A stretch of 63,655 nucleotides of DNA from assembly GCA_050575255.1 (NCBI GenBank), contig JBNZDD010013687.1, positions 1,524,751 through 1,588,405 on the forward strand, in the 5' to 3' direction. Numbering within the stretch: position 1 is the first letter of the stretch; every line of letters begins with the position of its first letter. The notes under the pieces were generated by a model. It saw only the letters and a list, made by a program, of their open reading frames with translations. It was not told where the DNA came from and did no database searches. The position numbers were made by a program, and so were the translations under genes. Source of the stretch: Harriotta raleighana (lineage: Eukaryota). Positions 5,574 to 5,624 of the stretch are shown here, one piece after another.

Positions 5574-5624
5574 ATGAGAGACGACAGTTTTGTTACAAGC
5601 CGGCTGTTGACGGGCCGATCATAA
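5574..5624 (+). other. Candidate upstream ORF, 16 aa MRDDSFVTSRLLTGRS*
   Basis: gccATGaga context (G at -3); ATG at 5574 to TAA at 5622-5624; about 450 nt upstream of the main ATG, with assembly gaps in between. Confidence 0.5.

Follow-up and report, generated by a model that had tools for sequence, protein, structure and literature searches.

A short upstream reading frame in the MEIS2 leader, likely as old as the jawed vertebrates

The locus and its gene

The DNA analyzed here, called "the window" below, is a stretch of 63,655 nucleotides whose forward strand carries the beginning of a MEIS gene and, within the leader of that gene, the short frame that is the subject of this work (Table 1). 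Exon 2 tells us which MEIS gene this is. Among the best 120 of its 278 matches, identity is 99% to the Meis2a proteins of sharks and rays, 95% to amniote MEIS2, and 84-91% to teleost proteins. Because these identities peak with the shark and ray proteins, the gene is assigned as the MEIS2 of a cartilaginous fish. A distinct locus, at 76% identity, is the MEIS1-type paralog, and the leader that holds the short frame is that of the MEIS2 ortholog. For a third MEIS paralog (L004/L006), neither exon 1 nor the leader was located.

Table 1. Features of the MEIS2 leader and first exons, in window coordinates.
Feature	Position	Strand	Remarks
Second upstream ATG ORF	4690..4782	+	30 aa; N-terminus resembles that of human c15norep17
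Non-coding conserved block 5' of the upstream ATG	5515..5573	+	5515-5557 also recognisable in the MEIS1 paralog
Decamer TGATTGACAG, PBX-MEIS-type candidate site	5546..5555	+	19 nt before the upstream ATG
16-codon AUG uORF, MEIS2 leader	5574..5624	+	ATG + 15 sense codons + TAA, 16 aa; ortholog of human c15riboseqorf11
Main start of MEIS2, with the coding portion of exon 1	6070..6081	+	4 codons, then GT donor
MEIS2 exon 2	6479..6708	+	AG acceptor at 6478; 3' boundary inferred from GT donor

A frame of sixteen codons

An earlier note on this DNA had described an upstream open reading frame (uORF) of 16 amino acids, and a second reading of the letters matches that description exactly. The note had added that the start of this frame is better placed than the main start at position -3 of the Kozak context. 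This is correct for that position only. Positions -3 and +4 are G and A at the upstream ATG and C and G at the main one, so that each start satisfies the Kozak rule at one of these two key positions.

Where 4600-6075 is readable, the plus strand has ATGs at 4690, 5574, and 6070 and no others; stretches of N between 5638 and 5918 are unread, and additional upstream ATGs are possible inside them. Between the stop of the uORF and the main ATG lie 445 nt of genomic sequence. Two raw DNA reads of run X22 match the region from ~5570 to 5637 at 99% identity or more. Of eight sequencing runs compared with the leader, six of the seven contig runs showed no match, which a filter may explain, and the seventh (X20) yielded one contig; no run was listed as RNA. 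A match to Rfam in the window (17.1 bits, against a cut-off of 58) was set aside as a chance match on a repeat.

A frame of this size is not, of course, a surprise in itself. When 5470-5637 was shuffled with its dinucleotides preserved, 2143 of 5000 shuffles had a closed ATG ORF of at least 16 aa, and 1242 of the 5000 had one with a purine at -3. As frames of this size arise so commonly by chance in the block, the interest of this one must come entirely from its conservation.

A translated counterpart in human

Supplement file 2 of Sandmann 2023 (PMC10032668) lists five human MEIS2 uORFs recovered by Ribo-seq. One of these, c15riboseqorf11 (row 2182), is entered there with a length of 51 nt and 16 aa, with the biotype uORF, and with MEIS2 as its gene. 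It is therefore in the same gene as the window uORF and of equal length, and, when the catalogue peptide is compared by eye, it is identical to it at 11 of 16 residues, including the last six. The five substitutions, read from window to human, are R2K, D3H, F6S, S9C, and R10G. The prefix "riboseqorf" presumably marks ORFs found in two or more studies.

The earlier note had expected the human leader to hold a homologous segment, with ATG and stop in register and with a similar ending (LLTGRS), and the catalogue row bears this out. As to translation, which the note had wished to see in ribosome footprints, the human ORF has its place in a Ribo-seq catalogue, which speaks for human only. The same supplement gives PhyloCSF scores of -10.45 for primates and -25.44 for mammals, counts 0 MS studies, and labels the frame "primatomorpha - young" and "de_novo_ORF"; the age classes are based on protein similarity together with reconstructed primate ancestors (PMC10032668).

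Orthologs in fishes

Metagenome contigs were scanned with a pattern that represents the upstream flank only, without the ATG or the stop. Two loci were found. One of these, L008, is a MEIS2 leader; the other (L007), in unrelated coding-like DNA, matched by chance and was discarded. Pattern scans had 0 matches in genome_contigs and 0 in viral_contigs. A frame antisense to the L008 leader is 98% identical to a gene model of Channa argus, and because of this match L008 is called teleost-like here.

The L008 uORF has its ATG and TAA in register, is 51 nt long, and shares 11 of 16 residues with the window. Over window positions 5515-5630, 105 of 116 nucleotides are identical between the two; the alignment has no indel inside the ORF and has gaps directly 5' of it. 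Both sequences have a purine at -3 of the upstream ATG. The genomic gap between uORF and main ATG is 221 nt in L008. If human (by its catalogue peptide), window, and L008 are compared in pairs, each pair has a frame of 51 nt with 11 of 16 residues shared. On these sequence comparisons, and in particular on the human length with its 11 shared residues and on the nucleotide identity of L008, the orthology of the uORF is beyond chance.

The L008 leader carries ATGs at 382, 359, 346, 257, and 495 (minus strand), which is four more than the readable leader of the window. Two of the extra ones fall within the uORF, where one is codon 13 in frame and the other opens an overlapping frame of 45 codons; of the remaining two, one precedes the uORF and one follows it.

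The minus strand over 5522-5635 is open as well, and this antisense frame has been called as a protein in public sets, in what seem to be spurious gene calls. Among them are a "hypothetical protein" of Channa argus and, from a pangolin, a model called "Dedicator of cytokinesis protein 11", whose start is antisense to the first two bases of the upstream ATG. Since such calls can be decoded, they were used as a proxy for further species. Thirteen calls span the block and represent 6 distinct blocks besides that of the window; P0136, which does not span it, was counted apart, and P0125, which yields the human peptide when decoded, does not count as independent of the human row. In all 13 there are 17 codons, and the start and stop positions read AT and TA, the third base of the ATG and of the stop being hidden in calls of this type. 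The calls support the register, rather than prove it, because they are ascertained on an open and gapless frame and are blind to indels and third bases. In P0130, codon 3 is Tyr or a stop. P0123, a repeat protein and one of five hits of one search, was judged a chance match and dropped.

Two of these antisense calls, P0122 and P0131, are informative in a different way. They run from exon 2 through the junction into exon 1, and then into the uORF. A spliced reading fits 52 of 53 residues, an unspliced reading 9 of 53. Their exon 2 part fits a shark-type protein at 52, a bird protein at 46, and a teleost protein at 45. By this spliced fit, a shark-type relative has the uORF on a spliced contig, ~248 nt ahead of its main AUG. 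The earlier note had made its case depend on the segment being part of the mature mRNA; it is so in this relative and, by the uORF biotype given in the catalogue supplement, in human.

Start and stop are thus in register in a cartilaginous fish, in teleost-like L008, and in human. Because the frame is found in human, in L008, and on the shark-type spliced contig, it is likely as old as the jawed vertebrates. A frame that arose de novo in primates should have no intact homologous ORF outside primatomorpha, of course, and this frame is intact in both the window and L008. The same-length frame in these two genomes contradicts the catalogue's "de novo" label, which looks wrong.

The published MEIS2 conserved uORF

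A conserved uORF of MEIS2 has already entered the literature. Takahashi 2020 (PMC7530721; preprint 10.1101/672840) used ESUCA to find uORFs with conserved peptides (CPuORFs), defined by Ka/Ks < 0.5 at q < 0.05. Seventeen uORFs, that of MEIS2 included, were assayed by frameshift in HEK293T cells, the cases having been picked for well-conserved C-termini (PMC7530721). MEIS2 is not among the eight that the paper names as showing sequence-dependent repression, and the authors allow for effects specific to certain conditions.

The published MEIS2 CPuORF is probably the uORF discussed here, because the latter gives the best fit to a conserved C-terminus among the five catalogued human MEIS2 uORFs. 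If the two are the same, then the present uORF has passed the test of Ka/Ks < 0.5 at q < 0.05. The published assay is silent on repression by the frame itself, because the wild type and the frameshift constructs both keep the AUG.

The eight sequence-dependent CPuORFs, those of PTP4A1, SLC6A8, FAM13B, KAT6A, LRRC8B, TMEM184C, MKKS, and MIEF1, are also short AUG uORFs kept across vertebrate orders, in the leaders of regulatory genes. They lose repression on frameshift, whereas the MEIS2 construct did not (PMC7530721). The present uORF also differs from the eight in that its C-terminus varies between lineages. Main-text searches outside subscription journals returned no paper devoted to this uORF, no experiment in which its AUG was mutated, and no use of the identifier c15riboseqorf11.

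Conserved DNA around the frame

The uORF does not stand alone in this leader. The conserved block directly 5' of its ATG holds the decamer TGATTGACAG, which we take to be a DNA site of the PBX-MEIS type. The decamer has one match in the window, where 0.19 are expected, and is present in 17 of 100 shuffles. Thirteen papers are listed in which this motif occurs together with Meis and Pbx. It is kept in L008 (410-419), and a one-base variant is found in MEIS1 (L005, near 1945). It is, therefore, a candidate for an autoregulatory site older than the duplication that separated MEIS1 and MEIS2.

Further upstream, the ORF that begins at 4690 has a conserved start without a conserved stop, its length being 30 aa in the window, 20 aa in L008, 37 aa in human, and 32 aa in the MEIS1 paralog. 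The surrounding block (4672-4745), kept in L008 and MEIS1, matches the overlapping human ORFs c15norep17 and c15riboseqorf12 in two frames, and the window counterpart of c15riboseqorf12 is without its ATG. The block contains motifs that we take to be YY1-like and ETS-like. Probably, this is a promoter element, and its ATG serves as a uORF start in addition. With two frames matching and four different stops, it shows constraint on DNA that mimics constraint on a peptide.

Selection on the peptide, on the DNA, or on the frame

The earlier note had proposed that the uORF is conserved as a peptide, with a constant start, length, and C-terminus. Start, length, and stop have indeed been kept. The C-terminus has not; T13M and S16L are found in L008 and in teleost-type records, and no invariant motif ends the peptide. 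Over all records, residues vary at positions 2, 3, 6, 9, 10, 13, and 16, two of which are among the last four.

The nucleotide substitutions tell a similar story. The window and L008 differ at 8 of the 51 bases of the ORF (43 identical), and the differences are distributed 4/2/2 over codon positions 1/2/3, without enrichment at third positions, a lack that the note itself had named as a refutation. For this one pair, omega is 0.50 in frame (Fisher p 0.30), as against 0.44 and 0.79 for the two remaining frames. With 7 of 16 positions variable, this omega, and PhyloCSF negative in both primates and mammals, the claim of selection at the peptide level is not supported. At fourfold degenerate third bases, the ORF and its L008 counterpart agree at 4 of 4, versus 11 of 25 for exon 2 of MEIS2 against MEIS1, which are paralogs (p 0.037). 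This points to constraint on the nucleotides, as does the fact that the 28 non-coding nt ahead of the ATG (27/28) are more conserved than the ORF (43/51).

In simulations with 8 random substitutions, the ORF remained intact in 0.32 of the trials, and at least 11 identical residues were retained in 0.69 of those. Because chance survival is as high as 0.32, one pairwise comparison cannot prove selection on the start and the stop.

One observation does lean toward the peptide. The codons for Leu11, Leu12, and Arg10 change by synonymous swaps at their first positions, so that 3 of 8 first-position changes are synonymous, against an expected 0.12 (p 0.064); with codon positions 1 and 2 taken together, 3 of 12 changes are synonymous (p 0.034). 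Both calculations are post hoc. A teleost leucine swap at codon 16, scored as non-synonymous by the script, is probably a fourth synonymous swap. These leucine codons may be read as a weak hint in favor of the peptide, and a claim for the peptide that goes beyond such a hint is not supported.

That the uORF encodes a micropeptide, or a conserved peptide whose invariant residues make the ribosome stall in some condition or else work in trans, seems to us quite unlikely. Such a peptide would account for the synonymous swaps (p 0.03-0.06) and for the nine residues common to window, L008, and human (M1, D4, S5, V7, T8, L11, L12, G14, and R15), and ESUCA did call a MEIS2 uORF peptide-conserved, with condition-specific effects allowed for by its authors (PMC7530721). 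However, it would have had to tolerate the radical changes R10G, R10S, F6S, T13M, S16L, and D3H/Y; 8 random changes leave at least 11 identical residues in 0.69 of simulated cases; and there are the negative PhyloCSF scores with 0 MS studies (PMC10032668) and a MEIS2 construct without a frameshift effect in HEK293T (PMC7530721).

A second alternative makes the frame a passenger. Here, the block would be kept as DNA, or as a cis-element in RNA-protein interaction, for example by way of a PBX-MEIS autoregulatory site, and the ORF would be translated without any selection on its start or its stop. Conservation does peak 5' of the ATG, where 27 of 28 nucleotides are identical to L008, and continues past the stop (6 of 6). 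L008 has the decamer unchanged, and MEIS1 has it with one base altered; the 4690 block yields "conserved peptides" in two overlapping frames; and an ORF survives by chance in 0.32 of simulations. Nevertheless, the register has been kept in three lineages while 7 of 16 residues have changed, neither the two DNA sequences read directly nor the human length shows an indel, and the motif that contains the ATG recurs at the matching place in MEIS1. Further, a fold signal was absent from all four stretches of RNA considered (z from -0.11 to 0.83, with -0.10 and -0.11 for two of them). Upstream AUGs in good context are, of course, usually selected against unless they are useful. We therefore regard a passenger frame as somewhat unlikely.

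A proposed brake on MEIS2 synthesis

The reading that we prefer, at a probability of roughly 0.55, is that the uORF is a sequence-independent brake that damps the synthesis of MEIS2, whatever its peptide. The frame appears as an ortholog in a cartilaginous-fish-type genome, in a teleost-like locus, and in human. Decoding of antisense gene calls places it, in a relative, on a spliced contig ~248 nt before the main AUG, and the catalogue indicates that human ribosomes translate it. The remainder would follow from the rules of scanning, namely Kozak leaky scanning and reinitiation. Some of the scanning 40S subunits would start at the upstream AUG, with its purine at -3 and A at +4, and would terminate after 16 codons. 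Partial reinitiation at the main AUG, ~220-450 nt downstream, would then lower or buffer the output. The identity of the residues would come mostly from constraint at the nucleotide level on the surrounding cis-element, not from selection on the peptide. Control of dosage by the frame itself, as the earlier note had suggested, is thus plausible.

In people, MEIS2 is a dosage-sensitive gene, and an element of its leader that has persisted since sharks and humans parted is a sensible place to seek non-coding variants. Further, if its AUG represses, it would offer a handle to raise the amount of protein made from the one good allele.

The element itself is already known in human, and a conserved MEIS2 uORF has been published and assayed. 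What is new is direct evidence, at the level of sequence, for an intact frame in cartilaginous and bony fishes, and this speaks against the de novo label. It provides a concrete case where very short ORFs are misdated in a widely used table.

The MEIS1 paralog and the age of the start

The MEIS1-type locus keeps both the 4690 block and the block 5' of the upstream ATG, and then has expanded runs of G and A. It has an ATG (L005 1862-1889, minus strand) within a motif shared with the start of the uORF; the motif was found in 0 of 200 shuffles, the pattern having been chosen post hoc. This ATG has T at -3, a weak context, and opens an unrelated reading of 40 codons with an N in codon 5. Because MEIS1 has an ATG with the shared motif at the matching place, the start of the uORF may predate the duplication of MEIS1 and MEIS2. 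Its peptide does not appear to be older than that duplication.

A MEIS1-like contig of run X20 (by guess, RNA) matches 5504-5594 at 82 of 91 letters; 4 of its 9 differences are listed, and the state of the ATG in it is unreadable. The motif at its 5' loose end is found, among 8 loci, in the MEIS1 locus only. Its 3' loose end starts with TGA in the frame of the uORF.

It is tempting to combine the upstream AUG, if it is older than the duplication, with the PBX-MEIS site, and to see in the two a single selected module that limits itself in two layers. We consider this conjecture doubtful. If true, MEIS proteins would work through the DNA site, and translation of the mRNA that results would be capped by the uORF. 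In that case, few uORFs in dosage-sensitive developmental genes would be older than this "de novo primate" ORF.

TCAT units are repeated at 5511-5526, where the conserved block has its 5' edge. These units are common to the window, L008, and MEIS1, and presumably resemble initiator or homeodomain-type motifs.
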